Positions 1 through 15,359 of a DNA stretch of 15,359 nucleotides are shown here, piece after piece. The first letter of the stretch is position 1. Each line of letters opens with the position of its first letter. A program made the position numbers and the translations under genes. A model generated the notes under the pieces. It did no database searches. It had not been told where the DNA came from and saw nothing but the letters and a program-made list of their open reading frames with translations. The DNA lies in UHGV virus genome UHGV-1915822. One strand, given 5' to 3'. Source of the stretch: a virus.

Positions 1-47
1 ACACAGCTGTTACACTGTATGCGCTCCAAGAAAAGGAAGTGAGGAAA

Positions 48-215
48 TCAAAAGTTTTTAGCGATTATTTTTACTAATGTATAACCGTTGTCGAGATAGT
101 CTTGAATAGCTTCATAGAATACCTCCCAAGATTCATAAGTTTCATTTAAGCAAACAGGGATCAATGAATCTTTTTCTTGTGTGTAAAGTAGCGCTGATGC
201 GTGGATTTGTTTCAT
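48..215 (-). CDS. hypothetical small acidic protein (55 aa), divergently transcribed from the early region
   Basis: Manually reverse-complemented ORF, below the 60-aa cutoff of the supplied track: MKQIHASALLYTQEKDSLIPVCLNETYESWEVFYEAIQDYLDNGYTLVKIIAKNF. ATG is at plus 213-215, stop at plus 48-50. An AAAGGTGG ribosome-binding site lies 9 nt upstream on the minus strand, and a sigma-A-like promoter lies upstream at plus 251-279. No recognisable domain. Confidence 0.35.
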   Translation of the reverse strand: MKQIHASALLYTQEKDSLIPVCLNETYESWEVFYEAIQDYLDNGYTLVKIIAKNF

Positions 216-250
216 ATAAGGGTGCCACCTTTCATATATTTTATGGTTAT

Positions 251-279
251 AGTATAGCAGGAAATATGCATAATGTCAA
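251..279 (-). promoter_or_regulatory. sigma-A-type promoter on the minus strand (TTGACA, 17-bp spacer, TG-extended TATACT)
   Basis: The reverse complement of plus 251-279 reads TTGACA-TTATGCATATTTCCTGC-TATACT. The spacer ends in TGC, giving a TGn extended -10. It is positioned about 35 nt upstream of the minus-strand ORF start at 215. Confidence 0.45.
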
Positions 280-312
280 TAGAAATACAGAAAGTTTTAT
301 AAAAATAAATAT

Positions 313-361
313 AAAATATTTTGAAAAAAGTATTGACAAAAGTTTTGAAAAAAGTTATAAT
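313..361 (+). promoter_or_regulatory. consensus sigma-A-type early promoter (TTGACA-N17-TATAAT) with AT-rich upstream palindrome
   Basis: -35 TTGACA at 333-338, exact 17-bp spacer, -10 TATAAT at 356-361. A 10-bp palindrome AAAATATTTT sits at 313-322 in the UP-element position. The first well-supported plus-strand gene starts at 389. Confidence 0.55.
319..355. repeat. two exact 13-bp direct repeats TTTTGAAAAAAGT bracketing the -35 hexamer (candidate operator)
   Basis: Exact copies at 319-331 and 343-355, 24 bp apart, on either side of TTGACA (333-338). Read directly from the sequence. Confidence 0.7.
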
Positions 362-388
362 ATAATCAAAGAAAAGGAGGGAATAAAT

Positions 389-589
389 ATGAAAACAGTA
401 AATAAGATGTTATTTAAAGCGGCGATTACGAAGGCAGATGGGATCATGTATAATGTTCATGATTTATTAAGTGGATTAGATTTTAATGACCCTGAGTTGT
501 TTTTTAGGATTTATGCTATTAAGAAATTGGTAAATGATTTAGTAGAAACGGTTGATGAACTAGATAAGTATAATGAGGAGGAAGAATAG
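389..589 (+). CDS. hypothetical small acidic early protein (66 aa)
   Basis: ATG at 389 preceded by GAAAAGGAGGG (371-381). This is the 3-prime part of track ORF 164..589; the upstream part overlaps the promoter region and is judged non-coding. Product MKTVNK...DELDKYNEEEE has net charge about -6 and a poly-Glu tail. Confidence 0.55.
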   Translation: MKTVNKMLFKAAITKADGIMYNVHDLLSGLDFNDPELFFRIYAIKKLVNDLVETVDELDKYNEEEE

Positions 590-4328: not shown

Positions 4329-4464
4329 AATATTGAGAAGGTAAGACGGAAAAACGGATCAAATGCTGTTATGGGTGCCACTGATGAAAGATTCAGCCAT
4401 AAAGCCGTGGGAGTGGTTTCTATTTGGTTTGTGCCGTTTTATCTTTTCTTTTTTAGGTGGTTTT

Positions 4465-5487
4465 ATGGGTAAATATTGGGACATCGGAAAAATTTTGAGT
4501 TATCAGCGTAATTTTAATTTTATCAATGGCGAACGATCAATAGGAAAAACCTACACGACGGAGAAGTTTTTTATTGAAAAAGCGATTAAAACAGGAAAAG
4601 AATTCGTGTATATTACTCGTACACAGGACGAAAAACGGAACGGAATATTTAAAGAAGCATTCAGCAAAGTAATATCGCGAGAATTTCCCGACAAAGAGAT
4701 TATTTTCACAAATGACGAATGTCTATTAAAAATTGCCGAATACAAAAGATGCTTAGGATATTGTATTGCATTAAGTGAAGCGTTAAAGATAAAGAAACGT
4801 TCTTTCCCGAATGTGTATTATTTAATGTTTGATGAATATATGCTGGAAAATAAAGGTTTAACCCGTTATGTAAATGGATGGAAGGAGCCGGAATTATTTT
4901 TATCTATTTATCATACCATTGACCGTGAAGAAGATCGCGTTATTTGTTTTTTATTGGGGAATAATACAACTTTTTATAACCCGTATCATATGCATCCTGC
5001 GTTTCAAATTCCCCATATAAAAAAGGGACAAATATGGTCAGGGGAGAACGTTCTTTTTCAATGGGCTGAAGGCACAGAAGAATTACGGGAAGAAAAAGCG
5101 AATTGTAAGTTCTTAAAAATGCTGAACGATACTACATATGGTAAATATGCGGTAAAAGGCGACTATATAGAAGATTCTGACGAATTTATTGAAAAAAGAA
5201 GCGCAGAAGCAAGAGTTAGCTTTAATATTGAATATATGGGAAATACCTATGGCATATGGAATGATATGAAGCATGGCCGAATTTACATTGATACAAAAAC
5301 AGACCCGGATTGTACCTTAAATTATGCTTTAACCTTAGAGGATCATAGTGAAAATACCATGTTGACATCAACGAAATCAATCTCTTGTTTAAATTGGCTT
5401 TCTCAAAATTTTAAACTGGGGAATGTTCGTTTTGTTTCTATGGAAGTAAAAAAGATGTGCGAGGGAGCCATCAATCTGATTTTATAG
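4465..5487 (+). CDS. DNA encapsidation (packaging) ATPase, phi29 gp16-like
   Basis: Walker A GERSIGKT and Walker B YYLMFDEY. ILSYQRNFNFINGERSIGKTY parallels phi29 gp16 MLSYDRILNFVIGARGIGKSY. I chose the ATG at 4465 (AGGTGG at 4455-4460) because it places Walker A at the same distance from the N-terminus as in phi29. The track's longest ORF starts at 4363 without a ribosome-binding site and adds a hydrophobic 34-aa extension, so the start is uncertain. Confidence 0.85.
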   Translation: MGKYWDIGKILSYQRNFNFINGERSIGKTYTTEKFFIEKAIKTGKEFVYITRTQDEKRNGIFKEAFSKVISREFPDKEIIFTNDECLLKIAEYKRCLGYCIALSEALKIKKRSFPNVYYLMFDEYMLENKGLTRYVNGWKEPELFLSIYHTIDREEDRVICFLLGNNTTFYNPYHMHPAFQIPHIKKGQIWSGENVLFQWAEGTEELREEKANCKFLKMLNDTTYGKYAVKGDYIEDSDEFIEKRSAEARVSFNIEYMGNTYGIWNDMKHGRIYIDTKTDPDCTLNYALTLEDHSENTMLTSTKSISCLNWLSQNFKLGNVRFVSMEVKKMCEGAINLIL

Positions 5488-5498
5488 GGGTTGATGAA

Positions 5499-5750
5499 AT
5501 GGATGTAAATACTGCGATTCAGTTAATTAACGGTGTAGGATTTCCCATTTTTGCGTGTATTGCTATGGGGGTGTTTGTTGTTTGGGACAAGAAAACCCGG
5601 AAAGACACGGAAGAAAAGCAACAAGATAAGCAGGAAAAGGTTTTAGAAAATATTACAACGGCTTTAAATCAAAATACTTTGGTTATTCAAAAGCTGGTAG
5701 ATAAGCTGGGAGGCGTAGACGATGCAAAAACTGACATTACCGGTAAATAA
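5499..5750 (+). CDS. small single-TM membrane protein, holin-like candidate
   Basis: ATG at 5499 with AGGGG 9 nt upstream; the track ORF starts at an in-frame GTG at 5457 overlapping the ATPase end. One hydrophobic segment GVGFPIFACIAMGVFVVW is followed by a highly charged tail KKTRKDTEEKQQDKQEK. It lies directly upstream of, and overlaps, the M23 peptidase gene. Confidence 0.4.
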   Translation: MDVNTAIQLINGVGFPIFACIAMGVFVVWDKKTRKDTEEKQQDKQEKVLENITTALNQNTLVIQKLVDKLGGVDDAKTDITGK

Positions 5751-6471
5751 TTGCGGAGTTACCTGCGGGTATAAAAATCAGAATTATCGGAATTATTGGG
5801 GATTTGGACATTACGGCGTTGACTATGTGTCCGATAGTCTTGTTCTCTATGCTTTAGGAAACGGCGAGGTGTTGATGAAAGGATGGGATAATCTTTTTGG
5901 CAACATCATTATTATTAAATACCCTGAGGTATATAATCATGCCACGGGTGAAGTAAAAGATTTAATTTGCCGTATGTATCACATGGCGAGTGAAAGTCCT
6001 TGTGAAGTTGGGTATCAAGTAAGCAGAGGAGAAAGCATTGGCATTATGGGGACGACAGGCCAATACTCTAGTGGTGTTCATGTCCATATTGAATTTGATA
6101 CCGACACGAAATATTATAATTACGGAGTTCCGTTGGCTAAGGATTCCAACCTGATTAAAAAGGGTGTGGATTCTACGGTTGATCCTTCGGACATTCTTTA
6201 TGTAGGTTCTAACCAGAGAGTTTACAATAATTCTCTAAATGGGTGGGCAACGGATAAAGAATTAAATTTGCCCTTATTGGACGAAGAACCCGAAAAACCA
6301 AAAGATCCCGAAATGAGTGAAGAATTGAAAAAACAACTGGATGAATTAGCATCCCGTGTTTCTAAAAATGAAAAAGATATATCGGATCTTTACACAGGAA
6401 TGGCGAAGAACGATGAATTTCGTGAAAATATGTTGAAAGCAATGGAGGCGGTTATAAATGGCTCTAACTAG
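5722..6471 (+). CDS. M23 family zinc metallopeptidase (peptidoglycan endopeptidase), virion-associated lysin or endolysin
   Basis: 249 aa. Contains HYGVD (HxxxD) and GTTGQYSSGVHVHIE (HxH), the hallmark LytM/M23 zinc-ligand motifs. Ribosome-binding site GGGAGG (5708-5713). The C-terminal ~100 aa is a charged coiled-coil-like region with no recognisable cell-wall-binding domain. Confidence 0.85.
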   Translation: MQKLTLPVNNCGVTCGYKNQNYRNYWGFGHYGVDYVSDSLVLYALGNGEVLMKGWDNLFGNIIIIKYPEVYNHATGEVKDLICRMYHMASESPCEVGYQVSRGESIGIMGTTGQYSSGVHVHIEFDTDTKYYNYGVPLAKDSNLIKKGVDSTVDPSDILYVGSNQRVYNNSLNGWATDKELNLPLLDEEPEKPKDPEMSEELKKQLDELASRVSKNEKDISDLYTGMAKNDEFRENMLKAMEAVINGSN

Positions 6472-6829
6472 AGACGAATATATGCAAATTTTAGAGCGCA
6501 TCAGTGAAACCGGCGGTTTTACGGAAGCTATGCTCGATGATTTGCAGAAGCTAAAAGACGATTACGATGAACGGGAAGGGATGCTGAAAGTCGAGGATGA
6601 AGCATCGGATAAAACCGTATATACGGATGATCAGGTGTATGATACCGACGGAGTAAGCTGGAGAGATAAATACGACGATATGAAGCGCCGGTATAAAGCA
6701 AGATTCTTTTCTACTCCTCTTGAAGCTAAAGAAGAGCAGATAGAAGATATTGCATCAGACAGCGACAGCACAACCCGTACCTATGAGGAAATTTTTGAAA
6801 CAAGAGAGGGAGATTATAATGCCGACTAA
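6458..6829 (+). CDS. putative head scaffolding protein
   Basis: 123 aa, highly acidic and helix-prone (rich in D/E/K/R), GGAGG at 6444-6448. It sits immediately upstream of the major capsid gene and overlaps it, as scaffold gene 7 does in phi29. No direct sequence match recalled, so the call rests on position and composition. Confidence 0.5.
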   Translation: MALTRDEYMQILERISETGGFTEAMLDDLQKLKDDYDEREGMLKVEDEASDKTVYTDDQVYDTDGVSWRDKYDDMKRRYKARFFSTPLEAKEEQIEDIASDSDSTTRTYEEIFETREGDYNAD

Positions 6830-8111
6830 ACAGACGTACAAAGCCTTGTCGCCTACTGCGCAGAACATGGATATTATGAACTATGTGCGTTCGCAGACCG
6901 ATTTTAATTATCAGAACAGAATCCCGATTGCAACACAGGAAAATTTAAACAACATTTATCAGACGATTCTTTGTAATTACGATTTGCAGAATGAGTTTAT
7001 TAAAACCCTTGTGAATCGTATTGCTCTGACTACCATTTCTTCCAAGCTGATTGAGAATCCCCTTGCCCCCTTGAAAAAGGGCGTAATTCGGCACGGTGAA
7101 TTTGTAAATGAATACTTTGTGAATATTGCAAAAGCGCATGAATTTGATCAGGGCGTTGCAGAGAAGGAGGTATTCAAACGGGAAATCCCGGATGTAGATG
7201 CAGTGTTTCATAAGCTGAACCTCAAGAACTTTTATAAAGTAACCATCTCGAATGAAATGCTCCGAGAAGCGTTCTTGTCCGACAGCGGTATTTCCGACAT
7301 GGTAAGTCGGATTATCGACAGCTTATACAGCGGGGCGAACTATGATGAATTCCTCTGCATGAAAAATATTATCGCAGAAGGGGCAAATAACGGAGCATTT
7401 TTGCCTGTTACGATTCCTGCTGTTACGGGCGATAATATTAAAGATGTGGTAGCAACCATCAAAGCGACTTCAATCAAACTGACGTTCCCCTCAACGAAAT
7501 ACAATGCTATGGGCGTTTTGACACTGACGAAACCCGAAGATCAGATTATTTTGATTGACCCTGATTTTGAGGCTTCAATGGATGTGAACGTTTTGGCAGC
7601 CGCTTTTAATCTCCCTTATGCTCAGTTCATGGCAAACCGGATTCCGATTGATGATTTCGGGGGGATTACCGGTGTCAAAGCCGCTCTTGTTGACCGTAAT
7701 TTCTTTATGGTGTTTGATTTTGAACAGTTGTTCACCGAAAATTACAATGGTCAGGGTTTGTATTGGAACTATTTCTATCATGTATGGAAAATGTTCTCCT
7801 ATTCTCCGTTCTCGAACGCTGTTTTGTTTACTACGGAAACGAATAGTGTACAGAGTGTTGATGTAACGCCCGCAACGGCAACGGTAGCAAGAGGAAATAC
7901 CCAGCAAATGACCGCTGTTGTAGCAACTACCGGCTTTGCACCGAAATCGGTTGATTGGACGGTAACCGGTGCGCAAACTCCAACTTCCTCGATCACCAAT
8001 ACCGGTCTTTTGAGTGTTGCAACCAATGAACCGAATACCACTTTGACGGTAAAAGCAACCAGTACTTTCGATTCCTCGAAATCGGATACCGCCAGCATTA
8101 CCGTTGGCTAA
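6819..8111 (+). CDS. major capsid protein with C-terminal bacterial Ig-like (Big_2-type) domain
   Basis: Start chosen at ATG 6819 (GAGGGAG at 6805-6811); the track ORF begins in-frame upstream at 6750 inside the scaffold gene. NEFIKTLVNRIALTTI parallels phi29 gp8 NDFITTLVDRIGLVVI. The C-terminal ~90 aa (VDVTPATATVARGNTQQMTAVVATTGF...TVKATS...ASITVG) has the Big_2 pattern. Confidence 0.8.
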   Translation: MPTKQTYKALSPTAQNMDIMNYVRSQTDFNYQNRIPIATQENLNNIYQTILCNYDLQNEFIKTLVNRIALTTISSKLIENPLAPLKKGVIRHGEFVNEYFVNIAKAHEFDQGVAEKEVFKREIPDVDAVFHKLNLKNFYKVTISNEMLREAFLSDSGISDMVSRIIDSLYSGANYDEFLCMKNIIAEGANNGAFLPVTIPAVTGDNIKDVVATIKATSIKLTFPSTKYNAMGVLTLTKPEDQIILIDPDFEASMDVNVLAAAFNLPYAQFMANRIPIDDFGGITGVKAALVDRNFFMVFDFEQLFTENYNGQGLYWNYFYHVWKMFSYSPFSNAVLFTTETNSVQSVDVTPATATVARGNTQQMTAVVATTGFAPKSVDWTVTGAQTPTSSITNTGLLSVATNEPNTTLTVKATSTFDSSKSDTASITVG

Positions 8112-8119
8112 AGAATAAC

Positions 8120-8149
8120 GGGGAGCTTTTCGCTCCCCTTTTTTCTTTT
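8120..8149 (+). terminator. rho-independent terminator after the capsid gene
   Basis: Stem GGGGAGC (8120-8126) pairs with GCTCCCC (8132-8138), 5-nt loop, then TTTTTTCTTTT. Confidence 0.8.
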
Positions 8150-8166
8150 ATAGAAAGGGTGAAAAT

Positions 8167-9804
8167 ATGGAAATTATACCGAATGGAGTTGTAAGGCTAT
8201 GCGCGAATATCCCTTGGGATCCTACCTATAGCGATGTTCGGAAATTTAACAGCGTAGGAGAGCAAACCTCATATATAGCAGGGAAAGCGATTAAAACCTA
8301 TAATAATGTATCCTACCAACGTCCGACATCTAGTGTAGCCCCTCCACGGCCTGCCTTTACCTGCGCTGTACCCGATGTAGCCGATGATCTTTATAACTGT
8401 AACTATATTATGTTTCAAAATACAAATTTCGGCTCAAAATGGTTTTACGGTTTTGTCCGACAGGTAAATTATGTAAACCCGAATTGTACCCATATTGTAT
8501 ATGAAATAGACCAATATCAAACTTGGTGTTTTGATTACGAAGTATTACCGTCTTATGTAGAGAGGGAACACGCCGAAACCGATGAATTATATGAAAACCT
8601 ACAGCCTGAACCGTTTACAGGGTTAGAGACCATTGTAACGGATATTCAAACCGTGCGTCCCAATGGGGGTAGCCCCGATTATAAGATTGTGGTTTGCACA
8701 AACGCTGTTCCGGAAACAGGAGAACCCTCTCCCGGTCAGGTTATTGATAACGTATATTCAGGACTTACCTTTACAGAGTTTTCAGCCAGTGACGGCGGAG
8801 CCGCCGCAAACAATTTTATAAAAGGCTTCAGTGCAGGAACATGGGATCGAATTTTAGATGGGGAAATCCCCTATTTAAGAGCAAGGATTGATGCCATTAT
8901 CAGTATTTTTATGTCACCTTATTCTGTTGTATCTCCCCCAACAAACGACACCGTGACCTTAGAACGGCCTACTACGTTAAATGGTTACGAGCCCAAAAAT
9001 AAAAAAATGCTTACCTATCCGTATTGTTGTTTGGATGTATCGAATAACTGTGGACAAACAAGAACATACTTATACGAAAAATTTACAACGGGAACATCTG
9101 TGTTTCCTATTGAATTCAATCAATATTATACCGCAGGATTTAACCCGACGATTGTTTCATTACCCTCGTTTTATGATAGTGATACAACCGTACAAGGACG
9201 GGGTAACGCAGATATGGCTATTCAGCTTTCAACCTTCCCAGTATGTGGGTGGAGCGGAGACGCTTTCAGCGATTGGCTAAATAATGAATATCAATCAAAA
9301 CAAAGCGGGATTTTATCGAATTTAGCAATCGGTATTGCCGGTGTGTTATTATCAGCAGGAACAGGAGGGGTAGCCGGTACAGCTTTAGCAGTAGGGGCAG
9401 GCAGGGAATTATTAAGCGGTATTTCCGAAGGTGCTTCGTTAGGAAGAGAAAAACAACTTCGTTCACAATCACAGGGTGCTACAATGGCAACCCCGTTAAA
9501 TAGTAGCTTTAATTTCAAAACAGACAGTGTAGGCATCACCTATAAACAAAAAGCTATCCGTGCGGAAATGGCCGAAGCGATTGATAGCTATTTTGATATG
9601 TATGGCTATGCGACTAACAAGGTCAAGGTGCCGAATGAGGATAGCCGCCCGTCATGGAATTATGTAAAATGCGATAATGTCATCATTCACGGCTCATGCC
9701 CGGTTGAAGCCATTACCACGATAAAAACCCTTTATAATAACGGCGTTCGTTTTTGGCATACCGACAGCGTGGGAAACTTTGCTTTATATAATGGGGTGGA
9801 ATAA
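8167..9804 (+). CDS. tail knob protein (phi29 gp9-like)
   Basis: 545 aa. YIMFQNTNFGSKWFYGFV parallels phi29 gp9 YIMFQNADYGNKWFYAFV, and C-terminal RFWHTDSVGNF parallels TLWHTDNIGNY. Ribosome-binding site AAAGGGTGA. Confidence 0.85.
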   Translation: MEIIPNGVVRLCANIPWDPTYSDVRKFNSVGEQTSYIAGKAIKTYNNVSYQRPTSSVAPPRPAFTCAVPDVADDLYNCNYIMFQNTNFGSKWFYGFVRQVNYVNPNCTHIVYEIDQYQTWCFDYEVLPSYVEREHAETDELYENLQPEPFTGLETIVTDIQTVRPNGGSPDYKIVVCTNAVPETGEPSPGQVIDNVYSGLTFTEFSASDGGAAANNFIKGFSAGTWDRILDGEIPYLRARIDAIISIFMSPYSVVSPPTNDTVTLERPTTLNGYEPKNKKMLTYPYCCLDVSNNCGQTRTYLYEKFTTGTSVFPIEFNQYYTAGFNPTIVSLPSFYDSDTTVQGRGNADMAIQLSTFPVCGWSGDAFSDWLNNEYQSKQSGILSNLAIGIAGVLLSAGTGGVAGTALAVGAGRELLSGISEGASLGREKQLRSQSQGATMATPLNSSFNFKTDSVGITYKQKAIRAEMAEAIDSYFDMYGYATNKVKVPNEDSRPSWNYVKCDNVIIHGSCPVEAITTIKTLYNNGVRFWHTDSVGNFALYNGVE

Positions 9805-10706
9805 TGGATTGTATGAAATTATTTGGACATAAACCTCCTAAAAAATACGCGCATTTGATTATGAATCACCGTACGTTTTGGGATTACTATTACCGTTTAT
9901 TGGGATTAAGCGTAAATTTATTTGAATGGAAAAATATACCCGATACCATTGACCCCAGATTTCTGGAGCTTACCTTGATTGAACGCGGATATGCAGTATA
10001 CTTTAATGATGAAGTATTAGGGGATCTTGCATTACCCTGTAGGATTGGTACTCCTTTAAATGTATATCGGATACCTGTTAGAAGAACTGCCTACTCGGTA
10101 AATGGATATAATAAGGATCTTACCATAGAAAATTCGGTTATGATCTTTAATAATTATCTGCACACTCCTTCTGTAGAAACAATCCTTCTTTTTGCCGGAA
10201 GATTGGCCGAAATTGAACGAACAATCGATGTAAATGTAAAAGCGCAAAAAACGCCTGTCACAATTCTTTGCGAACCACAGCAGGAATTTACCTTTAAAAA
10301 CTTTTACAACAAGGTGTCAGAAAATGAGCCGGTTATTATCGGAAACGCGCAAGGGTTTTCATTAGACAGCGTAAAGGTTCTGAATACCGCTTCTCCCTAT
10401 GTAGGCGACAAGCTCAATATTTTAAAGCGTCAAATATGGAATGAAGCGCTAACCTTCCTTGGGATTGAAAATGTTTCAAGTGATAAGAAAGAAAGGCTTG
10501 TCAGTGATGAAGTAGAAACCAACCTTGGCGCAGTAGCCGCGCAACGCTATACCCTTTTAAATTCCCGCAGAGAAGCAGCAGAAAAGATCAATAAAATGTT
10601 CGGTACGAATATTGAAGTAAACTTTAGGGCTGAAACGAGAACAGAGGAAAGAATTGCAGATTTACCCGAAAACGAGTATAATGGTTATAGAGAGGAAGTG
10701 GAATAA
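9804..10706 (+). CDS. portal / upper collar connector protein (phi29 gp10-like)
   Basis: 300 aa. LFEWKNIPDTIDPRFLE, KAQKTPVTIL and KKERLVSDEV parallel phi29 gp10 LFEWENLPPTINPSFLE, NAQKTPVLIR and KKERMVTDEV. TAATG overlap with the tail knob stop. Confidence 0.85.
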   Translation: MDCMKLFGHKPPKKYAHLIMNHRTFWDYYYRLLGLSVNLFEWKNIPDTIDPRFLELTLIERGYAVYFNDEVLGDLALPCRIGTPLNVYRIPVRRTAYSVNGYNKDLTIENSVMIFNNYLHTPSVETILLFAGRLAEIERTIDVNVKAQKTPVTILCEPQQEFTFKNFYNKVSENEPVIIGNAQGFSLDSVKVLNTASPYVGDKLNILKRQIWNEALTFLGIENVSSDKKERLVSDEVETNLGAVAAQRYTLLNSRREAAEKINKMFGTNIEVNFRAETRTEERIADLPENEYNGYREEVE

Positions 10707-11731
10707 TGGCCGAATATAGCATTGAATTAGGTACATTAGTAAAAATGGGCTATCCGCTTGCTCTTAATGATTACCCGATCTTTCGCGAAGATTACCGGGA
10801 AATACTAAACCGAAAAATTATCGATCACTTCTATTTCCGTGAAATTGGTTTTGAAACGCCCGACCGTTTTAATCATTTCCTCCATATGGTGATGCATGAA
10901 AACATGCCGTATTTCAACCAATTATATGAGAGTGAATTCTTAAAGTTTGACCCTCTCAGCACGGACTATTTTGAAGAGGTATCGGAGGATGTAACGAACA
11001 ATATAAAAGCGGGCAGACGGGACAACACACACACCCAAACCGAAACCACCGGTGACAGGTATACTTCGTTACATTCTCTCGATTCCTCCATCAACGTTGT
11101 TGGTAATGTATCCGACAAGGGAAATATTAACGATACCGAGAACATTACTTCAAAATCAACCCAAACGAATGATTTGACTACACAGGTAAATTCAAGCAGT
11201 CAAGGTGACGGAACACAAGACACGACCGGAAGCAGAACCAAATATTTTTCCGATATGCCGCAAACCGCAATTACCAATACCACAACGGTTAATCCCGATG
11301 GAAGCGTCACCTATTCTACAAACGGTTATGCAACCACCATGGAAACGGAAAGCACAGCCCAGCACGATGTTACCCATACCGAGGAAACGGGGCAATCTAC
11401 ATCGACCAATACCGGCACTATTGTCACCGAGGGAGAAAGCGACCGAACCTATGGAAGAACAACCACAAATACAACCGATGAAACCAACGATAGAACCCAA
11501 AAAGACACCCAACACGAAGATACACAACGCAATATCCTGAACAATTTGTCTTTCTTAGACAATGCGGTCAATAGCGAGGCAACCGATGAAACAAGAAAAA
11601 GTAAAAATGCTCGGAAAGGGCGCTCCGGCGTTTCTCCTTCTTCCCTTATTCAGGAATATCGGAATACGTTTTTAAATATTGATAAACAGGTTATTGCAAG
11701 CCTCGAAAATTTATTTATGGGGGTATTCTAA
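10706..11731 (+). CDS. lower collar protein (phi29 gp11-like) with long polar low-complexity insert
   Basis: 341 aa. Position between portal and appendage genes matches gene 11 in phi29. TAATG overlaps on both sides. The central ~170 aa is T/S/N/D/E/Q-rich low complexity. Confidence 0.6.
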   Translation: MAEYSIELGTLVKMGYPLALNDYPIFREDYREILNRKIIDHFYFREIGFETPDRFNHFLHMVMHENMPYFNQLYESEFLKFDPLSTDYFEEVSEDVTNNIKAGRRDNTHTQTETTGDRYTSLHSLDSSINVVGNVSDKGNINDTENITSKSTQTNDLTTQVNSSSQGDGTQDTTGSRTKYFSDMPQTAITNTTTVNPDGSVTYSTNGYATTMETESTAQHDVTHTEETGQSTSTNTGTIVTEGESDRTYGRTTTNTTDETNDRTQKDTQHEDTQRNILNNLSFLDNAVNSEATDETRKSKNARKGRSGVSPSSLIQEYRNTFLNIDKQVIASLENLFMGVF

Positions 11732-14700
11732 TGTACGATTGCAACAAAAAGCCTTGCACTCCACCTCCTGTGGATCCATGCGAGCATCACCATCCTTGTG
11801 GCCCGGATTTTCCGAATTTTTGCCCTCCTCCTGCTCCCCACCCTGCCCCTTATCAGCCTCCTTGCCCATCCGTTGCGGAGGGCTCTTCGCTATATGAGGC
11901 CGTCAACAATCTGACGAATCGCGTCAACACCTGTATGGCAACCTATAACGATGTAATGGCAAACTGCTATAAAACACTTCACAATCTGGAATGCGCGGCA
12001 CAGGAAAACGGGGCATATTATGATTGCCATGAGGTATGGACAGAAACCGGTTATCAGCCGGACGAAAGCGCAACCTATACCATTATTCATAAAGCCGTTG
12101 TCGACCGACGCGGTGAGCCGATCCGTATGCAATTACATCTTGCTTATGGAAATACGACTAATTCGCAGATTACCCAAAACTTATTTTCTGCATCCGAAGT
12201 AACGCTGGCAGACAAAATTGTCCCGGCTATTCCTCTTACCGGTACAGGCTGGTATGGTAATGCGATTATAAACGGTTGCCCGATTCCTTCAACCGAAGCC
12301 TCTACCTATTATACAGTTGGCTTTACGAAAAAAGGTGTAATGCGCTATTACCCGAATTCGGTATCGGTTGATCAAATGTTAAAGGATACCATTGAGAATG
12401 CCATGGGGTGCTCAGGCGTTCTCATTATCAACAGCCAGATTGCAAATGATGCATTCTTTGAGCATATCCCGAACGCTACCGAACAAAAAGCACGTATCGT
12501 TATGGGCCAAAACTACGATACCCGCGAGGTCATGATTCTCGTATGCGGACAGGAAAACAATGTTGATAAAAAAGGTCTCACTTCTAAAGCGTGCGCCGAA
12601 ATTCTTCTTCAGTATGGTTGTGACATCGCCGTGGAGCTTTCCGAAGGTGACAGCGCAGGAGCATGTGACAAAGGGCAACTGATGTTCGTCCCCGACAATA
12701 ACAATGTGCCGGAGACTTACGCATTCTGGTATATCTCCCGCAAATGCTTCTATTGCAATGATTACCAGCGTGAACTCGCAAAGCTCATGCAGAATTATGG
12801 AACTTGTCTTTGGCAAACATATTTGAATAAAAAGAAAATCGAACAGCTTCGGGAGGATTTGAATACCGAAATCACAAATCGCGAGGATGCCGATCAGGTA
12901 TTGCAAAACCAAATCCTCGAAGAAGTCGATAATCGCGTTAAAGCTGACGAAGTATTGCAAAACCAAATCCTTGCAGAGGTCGATAACCGCGTTAAAGCAG
13001 ACGAAGTATTACAAAACCAAATCCTCGCGGAAGTGGACAACAGAGTTAACGCAGATAATGTCCTGCAAAACCAGATCCTTACGGAAGTAGACGCGAGAAA
13101 AAATGCAGACGATGTTTTACAAAATCAAATCCTTGAGGAAGTAAAAAATAGAGAAAACGCAGATAACACCCTGCAAGAACAAATCCTTACCGAAACAAAC
13201 GCAAGAATCGATGCGGATGAATCCCTGCAAAATCAAATTATTACCGAAACAAACGCCCGTGTCGCGTATGATGAAAACTTACAAGCACAAATTACAAAAG
13301 AAGTAACCGATAGAACAAATGCGGATGCTACCCTGCATCAAGAAATATTAACCGAACAAGGCGAAAGAATCGCCGCAGATGAAGTTCTTCAAAGAAATAT
13401 CAACGAAGAAGCCGCTACTAGAGCAGAAGAAGATACAAAACTACAAGGTAATATTGATGCAGAAACAACCGCCAGACAAGAAGCAGATGCCACCCTGCAA
13501 TCGAATATCGACGCATTGGCACAAAGAGTAACCGTCCTTGAAACGGATGTCGATCAGCTTCAAACCCTCTATAATTCCTTGCAGGAACAAACCGCCGCAA
13601 TGGATACAGCCATTACTTCCATTCAGCAAACGATTGCTTCTATTGAAACTTCTCTGAATAATGTAAAAACCTCTATCGACAATATCACCAACGGTACAAC
13701 ACTCCTGCCGTATTTGCCGATCAAAGGCGGTACAATGCAAGGTTCCATCAACATGAATAATAAATCGATTACCAATGTTCCTTCTCCTTCAGCAGACGGC
13801 GACGCGGTAAACAAAAAATATGTTGATGACGCGATTGCAGGTGGTATTACTCCTCCAACAGGCGACTATCTCCCCTTATCCGGCGGTACCATGACGGGAA
13901 ACATCAACATGAATAACAACCGTGTAACCTCTGTAGGAGCGCCCAGCGCAGGTACAGATGCAGTAAATAAAGACTATGTTGATGATGAAATCGCAACCGC
14001 AGGAGATGGAAAATTCCTTCCGTTGGCAGGTGGCGCATTAACCGGCGCAGTTACTACTACCGAAACTGAATTTGAAAATAATGAGCTTGTTACAAAATCG
14101 TATGTAGATGGACAGGTTGCAACCGCTGGAAATGGAAAATTCCTTCCATTAGCAGGTGGAACCATGACCGGGGCAATCAACATGGGTAATCAGAAAGTAA
14201 CAGCGGTCGCTACGCCTACTACAGGCACCGATGCTACCAATAAAACCTATGTGGATAACGCCATTTCTACTGCCGGAAATGGAAAATTCCTGCCGTTAGC
14301 AGGCGGAACTATGACCGGAGCAATCAATATGGGTAATCAAAAAGTAACAGCAGTCGCCACCCCGACAGATGGCTCAGATGCCGCAAATAAACAATATGTT
14401 GATCAAGCTGTTGCCGGTTCGTCTTATACGCTGCCTGCCGCTACTACTACTACACTTGGAGGTGTAAAGGTTGGAGAAGGTTTGTCCGTTACCGCGGATG
14501 GCACGTTGTCGGCTACGGGTGGAAGCACAGATATTCCCATTGCAAGCGATACCGTTCTTGGTGGAATTAAAGTCGGGGAATCACTTTCTATTGAAGCTGA
14601 CGGTACTTTAAGCGTTGTTGCATCCGATAATCCTACTACTCCGCGAATGCCTGTTAATAAAGAGTATGTCGATAATCAGCTCGACAATTTTGTAGCAAAA

Positions 14701-15318
14701 ACTGGCGATACTATGACAGGGCATTTATCAATGAGCAATCGATCAAACGTTAAAATTTTAGATGATGACGATGAACCTGTTGCAAGTCTTGGTTATCTGT
14801 TTGGCGTTACAAAACCTAGAGGAATTATATCTTTCTTAAAAAACCCGGGCACCATCAATAACCTATTTAATGAAAATTATCTTGCTACGTATGCCTTAAA
14901 TCAACGAGAAGCTGTAAACTATGTAGGACGTACATTCAAATTCGGTGGAACCTTTACGGGAGGAGCATATAACTGTGTTGCTACACATTTAGGATTTGAA
15001 GATCCTAATGGTAAGGCTTCCAGATATGCAAATGTCAAATTAGATATTGACATCTATTGCTTAACTCCTATTACGACTGCTCCTTCCTTTGCCTTCAATC
15101 TACCAACTTCTATTTTTACGGTAAGAACTGGAACTATCACAGACGAAATATGGAAATTTACATACGCAGATAATGTATATTTGAATATTACTGCTCAAGA
15201 AGGTGGTACTATTATTTGTAAATTTGGAGGTTCACCTGCCGTTGGTAGGCATATTTCTGCTACGATTATACCTTATCAGCTTGCTTGGAGTATTGATCCG
15301 GCTATCAATCTTCATTAA
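11731..15318 (+). CDS. pre-neck appendage / tail fibre protein (gp12-position), multidomain
   Basis: 1195 aa at the gene-12 position. Contains a Cys/Pro/His-rich N-terminus, an N-terminal globular region of ~280 aa, about 15 tandem 14-aa repeats, five phage tail-fibre-type repeats (LPLAGGTMTG...NK.YVD), two GG-VKVGE-DGTLS repeats, and a distinct C-terminal domain. Confidence 0.85.
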   Translation: MYDCNKKPCTPPPVDPCEHHHPCGPDFPNFCPPPAPHPAPYQPPCPSVAEGSSLYEAVNNLTNRVNTCMATYNDVMANCYKTLHNLECAAQENGAYYDCHEVWTETGYQPDESATYTIIHKAVVDRRGEPIRMQLHLAYGNTTNSQITQNLFSASEVTLADKIVPAIPLTGTGWYGNAIINGCPIPSTEASTYYTVGFTKKGVMRYYPNSVSVDQMLKDTIENAMGCSGVLIINSQIANDAFFEHIPNATEQKARIVMGQNYDTREVMILVCGQENNVDKKGLTSKACAEILLQYGCDIAVELSEGDSAGACDKGQLMFVPDNNNVPETYAFWYISRKCFYCNDYQRELAKLMQNYGTCLWQTYLNKKKIEQLREDLNTEITNREDADQVLQNQILEEVDNRVKADEVLQNQILAEVDNRVKADEVLQNQILAEVDNRVNADNVLQNQILTEVDARKNADDVLQNQILEEVKNRENADNTLQEQILTETNARIDADESLQNQIITETNARVAYDENLQAQITKEVTDRTNADATLHQEILTEQGERIAADEVLQRNINEEAATRAEEDTKLQGNIDAETTARQEADATLQSNIDALAQRVTVLETDVDQLQTLYNSLQEQTAAMDTAITSIQQTIASIETSLNNVKTSIDNITNGTTLLPYLPIKGGTMQGSINMNNKSITNVPSPSADGDAVNKKYVDDAIAGGITPPTGDYLPLSGGTMTGNINMNNNRVTSVGAPSAGTDAVNKDYVDDEIATAGDGKFLPLAGGALTGAVTTTETEFENNELVTKSYVDGQVATAGNGKFLPLAGGTMTGAINMGNQKVTAVATPTTGTDATNKTYVDNAISTAGNGKFLPLAGGTMTGAINMGNQKVTAVATPTDGSDAANKQYVDQAVAGSSYTLPAATTTTLGGVKVGEGLSVTADGTLSATGGSTDIPIASDTVLGGIKVGESLSIEADGTLSVVASDNPTTPRMPVNKEYVDNQLDNFVAKTGDTMTGHLSMSNRSNVKILDDDDEPVASLGYLFGVTKPRGIISFLKNPGTINNLFNENYLATYALNQREAVNYVGRTFKFGGTFTGGAYNCVATHLGFEDPNGKASRYANVKLDIDIYCLTPITTAPSFAFNLPTSIFTVRTGTITDEIWKFTYADNVYLNITAQEGGTIICKFGGSPAVGRHISATIIPYQLAWSIDPAINLH
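12868..13530 (+). repeat. tandem 42-bp (14-codon) repeats, about 15 units, inside the appendage gene
   Basis: Unit consensus at protein level is roughly N-R-x-x-A-D-x-x-L-Q-N-Q-I-L-x-E-V-D. Adjacent DNA units are near-identical, for example GTATTGCAAAACCAAATCCT recurs at 42-bp spacing. Confidence 0.8.
13711..14420 (+). repeat. five tail-fibre repeat units of 126-147 bp; the last two are near-identical 147-bp direct repeats
   Basis: Protein units LP(L/I)xGGTMxG.INM.N..VT.V..P....DA.NK.YVD. The DNA copies beginning near 14125 and 14272 are almost identical over about 147 bp. Confidence 0.8.
14431..14620 (+). repeat. two ~30-codon repeats (T-LGG-KVGE-L-ADGTLS)
   Basis: LPAATTTTLGGVKVGEGLSVTADGTLSA followed by IPIASDTVLGGIKVGESLSIEADGTLSV. 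Confidence 0.7.
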
Positions 15319-15359
15319 CACTCCTTTCTTTACAAGCGCTGGCAGATGCAGCTCTGTCG

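Follow-up and report, generated by a model that had tools for sequence, protein, structure and literature searches.

The stretch of DNA examined here, UHGV virus genome UHGV-1915822 (15,359 nucleotides; the window), comes from a phi29-like podovirus. Pfam matches in the window cover the protein-primed DNA polymerase B, the gp16 packaging ATPase, an M23 peptidase, a phi29-type capsid protein with a Big_2 domain, the gp9 tail knob and the gp10 connector, and the module runs in the order DNA polymerase B, gp16 ATPase, capsid, gp9 knob, gp10 connector, lower collar and appendage. The open reading frame (ORF) at 11731-15318 was assigned as the appendage gene because it lies directly 3' of the lower collar gene. 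It encodes a protein of 1195 residues whose translation begins MYDCNKKPCTPPPVDPCEHHHPCGPDFPNFCPPPAPHPAPYQPPCPSVAEG, identical to the sequence quoted in an earlier note on this DNA; the six Cys, the HHH run and the many Pro that the note had pointed out in the ~50 N-terminal residues match this translation exactly. We focus here on this Pro/Cys/His-rich N-terminal extension, termed the leader, which probably fastens the appendage to the neck of the virion. The leader and the domains that follow it are laid out as below.

11731-11883, plus strand: whole leader, a Pro/Cys/His-rich N-extension, residues 1-51 (from composition, predicted disorder and conservation as a class in 154 representatives)
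11731-11805, plus strand: variable head, residues 1-25, MYDCNKKPCTPPPVDPCEHHHPCGP, with four of the six Cys and the HHH run
11806-11832, plus strand: conserved short linear motif D-F-P-N-F-C-P-P-P, residues 26-34 (consensus [DN]-Φ-P-x-[FY]-[CI]-P)
11833-11856, plus strand: Pro-rich spacer APHPAPYQ, residues 35-42, central section of the link of restricted length that joins the two motifs
11857-11883, plus strand: junction motif P-P-C-P-S-V-A-E-G, residues 43-51 (consensus MPP[VA]PSV[VC][EQ]G)
11890-12003, plus strand: predicted amphipathic helix, residues 54-91 (AlphaFold2 helix 54-92 or 54-91 in two models; 3-4 hydrophobic spacing read from the sequence)
12028-12750, plus strand: phosphodiester glycosidase (NAGPA/DUF2233) domain, residues ~100-340 (Foldseek, Pfam and an AlphaFold2 predicted local distance difference test score, pLDDT, above 95)

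Within the leader, Cys is found at C4, C9, C17, C23, C31 and C45, and His forms the run H19-21 and recurs at H37. Binomial comparison with all other proteins encoded in the window gave P = 1.6e-12 for Pro (17/51), 5.6e-5 for Cys (6/51), 3.4e-3 for His (4/51) and 1e-19 for the three residues together (27/51), and the runner-up 51-residue stretch among the window proteins holds just nine Pro, Cys or His. The same signature recurs in relatives of the protein. An exhaustive profile search (E <= 1e-30) gave at least 211 cluster representatives at 50% identity, and in all 150 representatives listed the match starts within ~50 residues of the N-terminus. Leaders, taken as the segment before the helix, were delimited in 154 cluster representatives, in which Pro makes up 27.8% of the leader versus 2.7% of the rest of the same proteins, Cys 9.4% versus 1.3% and His 5.3% versus 1.0%. 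These leaders have a median length of 52 residues (range 22-91); Cys and His together number at least four in 137 of the 154 and are at zero in none. All related sequences with a stated source derive from human or rabbit gut samples. Judged by sequence, the Pro/Cys/His leader is thus a hallmark of a large uncultured clade of phi29-like gut phages. It is not universal among such phages, because one further locus (L004; IMGVR_UViG_3300031760_001105, 5995-8561) lacks it; here the protein encoded after a short collar of 242 amino acids is not homologous and has an ordinary N-terminus, MKCNEHLAKIGS. Literature on phosphodiester glycosidase phage tails and on Zn/Cys-rich or proline-rich tail-fibre N-termini held no description of the feature, and searches of PDB sequences with the leader profile and the N-terminal domain returned nothing meaningful.

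Leaders equivalent to that of the window, with the conserved motifs, are translated in homologues at 30-70% identity, and the conserved leader residues are encoded with synonymous codon differences between loci. This retention of motifs while codons vary synonymously indicates that the leader is coding and selected at the protein level. The ATG at 11731 shares bases with the upstream collar stop codon (TAATG), the two genes being translationally coupled, and is served by the following element.

11719-11723, plus strand: Shine-Dalgarno sequence GGGGG, 7 nt 5' of the appendage ATG (read from the sequence)

A start codon further downstream, which the earlier note had named as an outcome that would undo its reading, was rejected, since the next ATG in frame comes only at codon 69, within the conserved helix, and since translations of the leader are conserved. 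The start at 11731 is therefore sound. A signal acting at the level of DNA or RNA was likewise rejected. The RNA structure of the leader region is not unusual (fold z-score -0.72), a repeat scan found a single trivial 10-nt repeat and no inverted repeat, and the amino-acid enrichment is unlike that of a C-rich tract. Across the clade, Ser/Thr and Ala/Ile/Leu/Met/Val are depleted in leaders, and as residues with C-rich codons (Ser, Thr, Ala and Leu) belong to these depleted groups the enrichment is not a mere consequence of C-rich DNA bias. In one distant relative (L005; MT835873) a 287-residue ORF at 1966-2829, a putative amidase judging from its translation, lies between the collar and appendage genes, indicating that direct translational coupling of the two is not obligatory.

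In a close subfamily of 38 representatives, P28, P44, P46, S47 and G51 are invariant, P32, P36, P43 and V48 are nearly so, and a Cys aligns with C17 and with C31 in most members (with C17 in at least 70%). A motif of the ΦPxFCP type, a candidate docking peptide, is present in 61 of the 154 leaders. The head that precedes it, the candidate region for metal binding or cross-linking, varies from 7 to 55 residues across relatives, and Cys is densest within the first 60% of leaders. Measured from the Cys/Ile of ΦPxF[CI]P to the Pro of PSV, the spacing is bimodal, at 14-16 or 21-23 residues (15 in the window, C31 to P46), and since head length varies freely this points to a length constraint on the spacer.

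These patterns bear on whether the leader could be a biased and largely functionless linker, in which Pro/Cys units have been expanded by slippage, PSVxEG alone matters and the Cys and His are incidental. The wide range of leader lengths fits such an origin, as do the internal tandem duplications (two copies of GCDCGKPPV in L003/L018 and three of CHPPRPD in P0033), the gain or loss of short leader units by insertion or deletion in near-identical relatives and the low AlphaFold2 confidence. We nevertheless consider a neutral linker rather improbable, as Cys is enriched 7-fold and His 5-fold across 154 diverged leaders that are never devoid of both, the enrichment is not simple DNA bias and a second motif, with an invariant Pro, is held at a fixed distance from the junction. 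Moreover, the arm of the cultured relatives comprises 25-31 residues and is free of Cys, suggesting that these phages need nothing longer and that the elaboration is a sustained trait of the clade.

PPP occurs in the window leader and in 83 of the 154, HxH in 53 (H19-H21 in the window) and CxxC in 46, while runs of at least five His are present in four (His5-6 in P0005, P0079, P0093 and P0138). Seven divergent members (e.g. P0020, P0094, P0097, P0099, P0107 and P0137) carry a CxxCG-x(4-6)-CxC knuckle at the extreme N-terminus, and another branch has a different conserved peptide, KRExPxWCGxxDT.... The His runs, HxH, CxxC and the knuckles, along with the Cys and His enrichment across the clade, may hint at metal binding. 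When profile A3 was used to look for the leader and helix joined to other downstream domains, only nine short fragments from small contigs were recovered, which were uninformative.

Structure prediction places the leader in an arrangement comparable to that of the phi29 appendage. Single-chain AlphaFold2 models from a 71-sequence alignment (mean pLDDT 87.6) and from a 12-sequence run agree with one another, and residues 1-53 have no secondary structure (pLDDT 41-55), so that the proposal in the earlier note of a non-globular segment is borne out by predicted disorder even with the deeper alignment. The predicted helix at residues 54-91 corresponds to the coiled-coil arm stem of gp12 and may be able to form a three-helix coiled coil. 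Cys68 (11932-11934; RVNxCI), nearly invariant in the subfamily, occupies a core heptad position of this predicted stem helix; three such residues facing the axis of a three-helix coiled coil could form a tris-thiolate metal site. In phi29, gp12* comprises gp12-N (residues 1-32), a three-helix coiled-coil arm stem (32-100) and the tassel (Xu et al. 2019, PMC6542822). The N-termini of the phi29 trimer splay as extended arms, with residues 22-31 of one filling a gap between connector helices and the other two passing across the surface of the collar, the C-terminus of gp11 and adjacent stems to form an interlocked ring (PMC6542822). The two appendages thus share their place in gene order and within the protein, as well as a non-globular extension followed by a helix and an enzymatic tassel. 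They differ in that the extension is 32 residues long in phi29 gp12 and 51 in the window leader, that the latter has the additional conserved ΦPxFCP motif and fixed spacer, and that the tassel of phi29 gp12 is a pectin-lyase-type β-helix whereas that of the window has a NAGPA fold. Because this NAGPA/DUF2233 fold rather than a β-helix follows the stem, we regard the window appendage as a modular analogue and not an orthologue of gp12.

N-termini were compared from phi29, Goe1, VMY22, DK2, SerPounce, MG-B1, Chedec11 and one faecal phage. The window leader is 33% Pro, 12% Cys and 8% His, whereas the equivalent segments of the seven named phages contain no Cys and 0-1 His (no His in phi29, Goe1, VMY22, DK2 and MG-B1). 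The suggestion that the segment is unusual for a phi29-type appendage consequently holds for its composition, set against these seven Bacillus-phage segments, and fails for the extended non-globular N-terminus itself, which phi29 gp12 also possesses. A precedent for the modular appendage is Bacillus phage VMY22 (Salasmaviridae), a cultured phi29-like phage in which gp17 (KT780304, 11864-13507) is a post-collar NAGPA appendage with an N-extension and a stem helix, as in the window. Its N-extension, MSTPIIGVTPIIMPVGYPYAKYLPSAYDDS, has five Pro and, unlike the window leader, neither Cys nor His, and the protein (547 residues) is without the long coiled coil and fibre repeats of the window protein.

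At the junction, gp12-type N-termini share ...RYLP[ST]A[FY]D[ED]S[LM]x[LIV][LY]E........[LV]N, the counterpart in the gut clade is ...PP[VA]PSV[VA]EGxSLYEA.NNL..RVN, and the common pattern P-[ST]-[AV]-x-[DE]-x-S...[LI]-[YL]-E........[VL]-N is found in phi29, Goe1, VMY22, DK2, MG-B1 and Chedec11. The junction motif aligns with Y24-E31 of phi29 gp12 (YLPTAFDE), inside the segment formed by residues 22-31. HHalign comparison of profile A3 with eight Bacillus or faecal gp12-type N-termini placed residues 39-76 on gp12 19-57 (38 columns, P 5.5e-4) as a weak match of 30% probability. A relationship between the leader junction and the gp12 N-terminus is suggested by these sequence patterns.

Attachment at the neck is also in keeping with the genes that precede the appendage.

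9804-10706, plus strand: connector, upper collar, gp10-like (Pfam PF05352 Phage_connector, E 8.5e-68)
10706-11731, plus strand: lower collar/tail-tube protein, gp11-like (PHROG 3225 'adaptor Ad4', E 3.8e-26; PHROG 5472 'lower collar')

By tblastn the lower collar shares ~28% identity with lower collars annotated in Bacillus Salasmaviridae. The order connector, collar, appendage is kept in all 44 IMG/VR loci carrying the domain (contigs of 9-21 kb), in 42 of which the collar gene ends less than 400 nt before the domain, and it recurs in loci L001-L003 and L006. The earlier note's placement of the leader at the collar-attachment end of the appendage thus agrees with the position of the gene 3' of the connector and lower collar genes in the window and in 44/44 loci. 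In phi29 the C-terminal MLVY of gp11 plugs into the connector (PMC6542822), and the clade collars end in LFMGV[FY] (LFMGVF in the window), which matches this plug. By analogy with phi29, the connector is a likely binding partner of the leader.

Taken together, we favour, with a probability of roughly 0.6, an interpretation in which the leader is a flexible, extended N-extension that fastens the appendage trimer to the neck and in which the Cys/His head adds metal-dependent or cross-linking stability. The functional part of this interpretation rests on analogy, and the binding partners, the extended conformation and the metal binding are inferred. Each appendage trimer would be fastened by the arm to the connector and lower collar, and probably to neighbouring appendages too, as is done by gp12-N. 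The junction PPxPSVxEG (residues 43-51), just before the stem helix, would correspond to the part of phi29 gp12 that is wedged between connector helices, and the Pro-rich spacer could act as a stiff polyproline-type ruler of ~15 residues, or ~45 Å if extended. DFPNFCPPP (residues 26-34) would then be a second docking peptide, preceded by the variable head (residues 1-25) with its load of Cys and His. This head most likely would bind metal ions such as Zn2+ or cross-link neighbouring arms, thereby adding avidity and stability to a ring of 36 arms with no bond to the lower collar.

The Cys content of the proposed partners limits the ways in which the leader Cys could be used. Cys is absent from the window lower collar and makes up 0.17% of clade collars on average, so that a disulfide to the lower collar was ruled out and with it this form of the covalent attachment to the collar that the earlier note had entertained. 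The window connector has three Cys (C3, C79 and C156), and Cys is partly conserved in clade connectors at columns with 27, 25 and 25 of 41 sequences (25/41 each for C79 and C156), alongside a His column at 29/41. Conserved, paired Cys and a Cys-bearing collar, as an interchain disulfide hinge would call for, were not found, although links among the leaders themselves or to the connector Cys may form. A zinc knuckle or ribbon was rejected for the window leader, which does not contain two CxxC pairs or a CxxC with a CxC/H pair.

A broader form of disulfide linkage is a hinge or ring in which interchain bonds, formed after lysis within the trimer, between arms or to the connector, lock the appendages covalently. 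The CPPP and PPCP contexts resemble known disulfide hinges, the arms interlock in phi29 such that Cys of different chains would adjoin, the connector offers its three Cys, and Cys spacing is more regular than chance, gaps of 6-9 residues being about two-fold enriched over shuffled leaders (gap 7: 67 versus 30 expected). Against such a ring stand the near absence of Cys from collars, the lack of any preference for even Cys counts (80 leaders even versus 74 odd), the leaders with no Cys (6/154) or one (10/154), and the replacement of Cys by Ser, Tyr or Asn in close relatives. In addition, assembly takes place in a reducing cytoplasm and the relatives are derived from the gut, and oxidation is therefore not assured. 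We judge a disulfide-linked ring to be distinctly improbable. The gut is largely anoxic. Given the gut source of the relatives and cytoplasmic assembly, we rank metal binding above disulfides as the role of the head. The leader is better described as an extended chain that bears redundant ligands at intervals than as one fixed fold, and metal bridging or cross-links among interlocking arms, as opposed to one obligatory bond, are plausible by analogy with the phi29 ring. Cys and His counts, compared to see whether one ligand replaces the other, showed a weak correlation (partial Spearman -0.16, P = 0.045), which we do not rely on.

Several observations weigh against attachment by a metal-binding or cross-linking arm. 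The similarity of the junction to gp12 is weak, the HHalign probability falling from 30% to 5.7% when Goe1 alone is used, and the AlphaFold2 models, being of monomers, cannot display docking. Cys positions are poorly conserved, with substitution by Ser, Tyr or Asn occurring even between near-identical relatives. In comparison with shuffled leaders, CC and CxC are under-represented, which, with the enriched 6-9 residue gaps, fits spaced cross-links better than compact zinc fingers; CxxC was not found in the window leader, where successive Cys are 4, 7, 5, 7 and 13 residues apart. A conserved Cys/His partner cluster was not found in the collars or connectors of the clade. Finally, four representatives have only one Cys or His residue in the leader, and the ligands are therefore not essential for attachment itself.

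The domain that follows the stem raises another conceivable role for the leader. Foldseek against the PDB matched NAGPA (6pku; E 3e-12, template modelling score 0.69 on the target, probability 1.00), and Pfam PF09992 matched residues 187-325 at 30.1 bits (cut-off 25), as it does nine of ten family members. This domain stands where phi29 has its tassel, and its fold suggests that it cleaves sugar-1-phosphate linkages in wall teichoic acids or polysaccharides, by analogy with phi29 gp12, for which degradation of wall teichoic acid has been reported. Vertebrate NAGPA is made with an inhibitory pro-peptide and PPP runs stall ribosomes, requiring EF-P, so that the leader could be a pro-peptide or auto-inhibitory segment of the NAGPA domain or a translational throttle. 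The closest solved folds do include auto-inhibited NAGPA pro-forms (6pky), and PPP, seen in the window leader and just over half of the others, stands in a gene coupled translationally to that of the collar. However, neither AlphaFold2 model has a confident contact between leader and domain, VMY22 carries this enzyme domain behind an N-extension of the ordinary phi29 type and so shows that the domain does not need such a leader, PPP is missing from 71 of the 154 leaders, and neither idea explains the Cys/His enrichment or the aromatic-proline motif. We therefore attach very little credence to either.

Some parallels to the proposed fastening arm exist outside the phi29 group. The N-terminal tail of the adenovirus fibre docks on the penton base through its FNPVYPY motif and offers a functional analogy, in that a trimeric fibre is held by a flexible N-terminal tail that spans a symmetry mismatch and has a short aromatic-proline peptide as its sole conserved element (ΦPxFCP and PSVxEG in the clade). 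There is no sequence or evolutionary relation between the two, and neither Cys nor His is abundant in the adenovirus tail. Zinc knuckles and ribbons (CxxC...CxxC) and the HxH metal sites of trimeric T4 gp37-type fibres share Cys/His clusters and HxH with the clade, but the window leader has no CxxC, its ligand positions are not conserved and no fold is predicted. The IgG hinge (CPPCP) and the Cys-rich ends of cnidarian minicollagens are similarly Pro-rich, extended segments with regularly spaced Cys in multi-chain assemblies. The window leader departs from these in cytoplasmic virion assembly, gut-derived relatives, the lack of an even Cys bias and of CPxCP, and a Cys-free collar partner.

An extension of the fastening-arm interpretation is that the 36 arms form a metal-bridged or redox-switchable ring at the neck, a 'chainmail collar', whose stability or release on infection is set by metal or redox state and of which the His5-6 runs and Zn knuckles are variants; we regard this as speculative and unlikely. 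Phi29 and the staphylococcal picoviruses are grown in air. The N-extension of a phi29-type appendage is known already; its Cys/His/Pro-rich form across the clade, together with natural His tags and knuckles at the N-terminus, appears to be new. Neck attachment in small podoviruses is known atomically in few cases, namely phi29 (PMC6542822) and staphylococcal picoviruses such as Andhra (PMC9710869), and here a large uncultured clade (at least 211 protein clusters at 50% identity) appears to have rebuilt the attachment arm, using a polyproline ruler and a head rich in Cys and His. Should this head indeed bind metal or cross-link, this would be a new way to stabilize a virion, could bear on phage persistence in anoxic, metal-limited gut contents and, since some members carry natural His tags, would provide a handle for purification or engineering. 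ΦPxFCP and PSVxEG are candidate docking motifs that could serve to swap receptor-binding modules within the clade.

The wider relationships of the window are distant. Megablast of the entire window against 50,697 phage records gave no match, and tblastn of the N-terminal 377 residues found only two distant uncultured human-faecal phages (16-17 kb) and two domain matches in Staphylococcus phages. In genome collections, only phage-sized contigs binned in rabbit-gut metagenome-assembled genomes (Muribaculaceae and Clostridia) were recovered, and such binning is unreliable for host. No inverted terminal repeat of at least 10 nt was found between window positions 1-400 and 14960-15359, and the window probably falls short of a full linear genome with both ends intact. 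A public contig of 903 bp encodes a protein (P0008) that is identical to the appendage over residues 1-165 and then continues as a reverse-strand reading of window 12412-12966; its parts correspond to 11731-12225 followed by 12412-12966 on the minus strand, and the contig resembles a fold-back or chimeric assembly derived from this same phage.

Elsewhere in the module, the gp16 packaging ATPase and M23 peptidase (4363-6471) lie 5' of the capsid gene, differing from the phi29 order, in which the ATPase is at the right genome end. The lower collar has a long middle section rich in Thr, Asn, Ser, Asp and Glu (residues ~95-300), and clade collars are mostly 329-524 residues long (one of 241) versus 293 in phi29, which probably means a longer β-hairpin tail tube. 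The remainder of the appendage completes the locus.

12760-15318, plus strand: rest of the appendage, comprising coiled coil, tail-fibre repeats and C-terminal domain (PHROG tail-fibre and head-decoration repeat matches)

In the AlphaFold2 models a helix from residue 344 onward leads into the long coiled coil. The coiled coil at 12880-13260 contains seven exact-period repeats of 18 residues, with LQNQI every 18 residues (residues 391-499), and four tail-fibre repeats of ~45 residues (GGTMTG...NKxYVD) follow at ~13850-14400.

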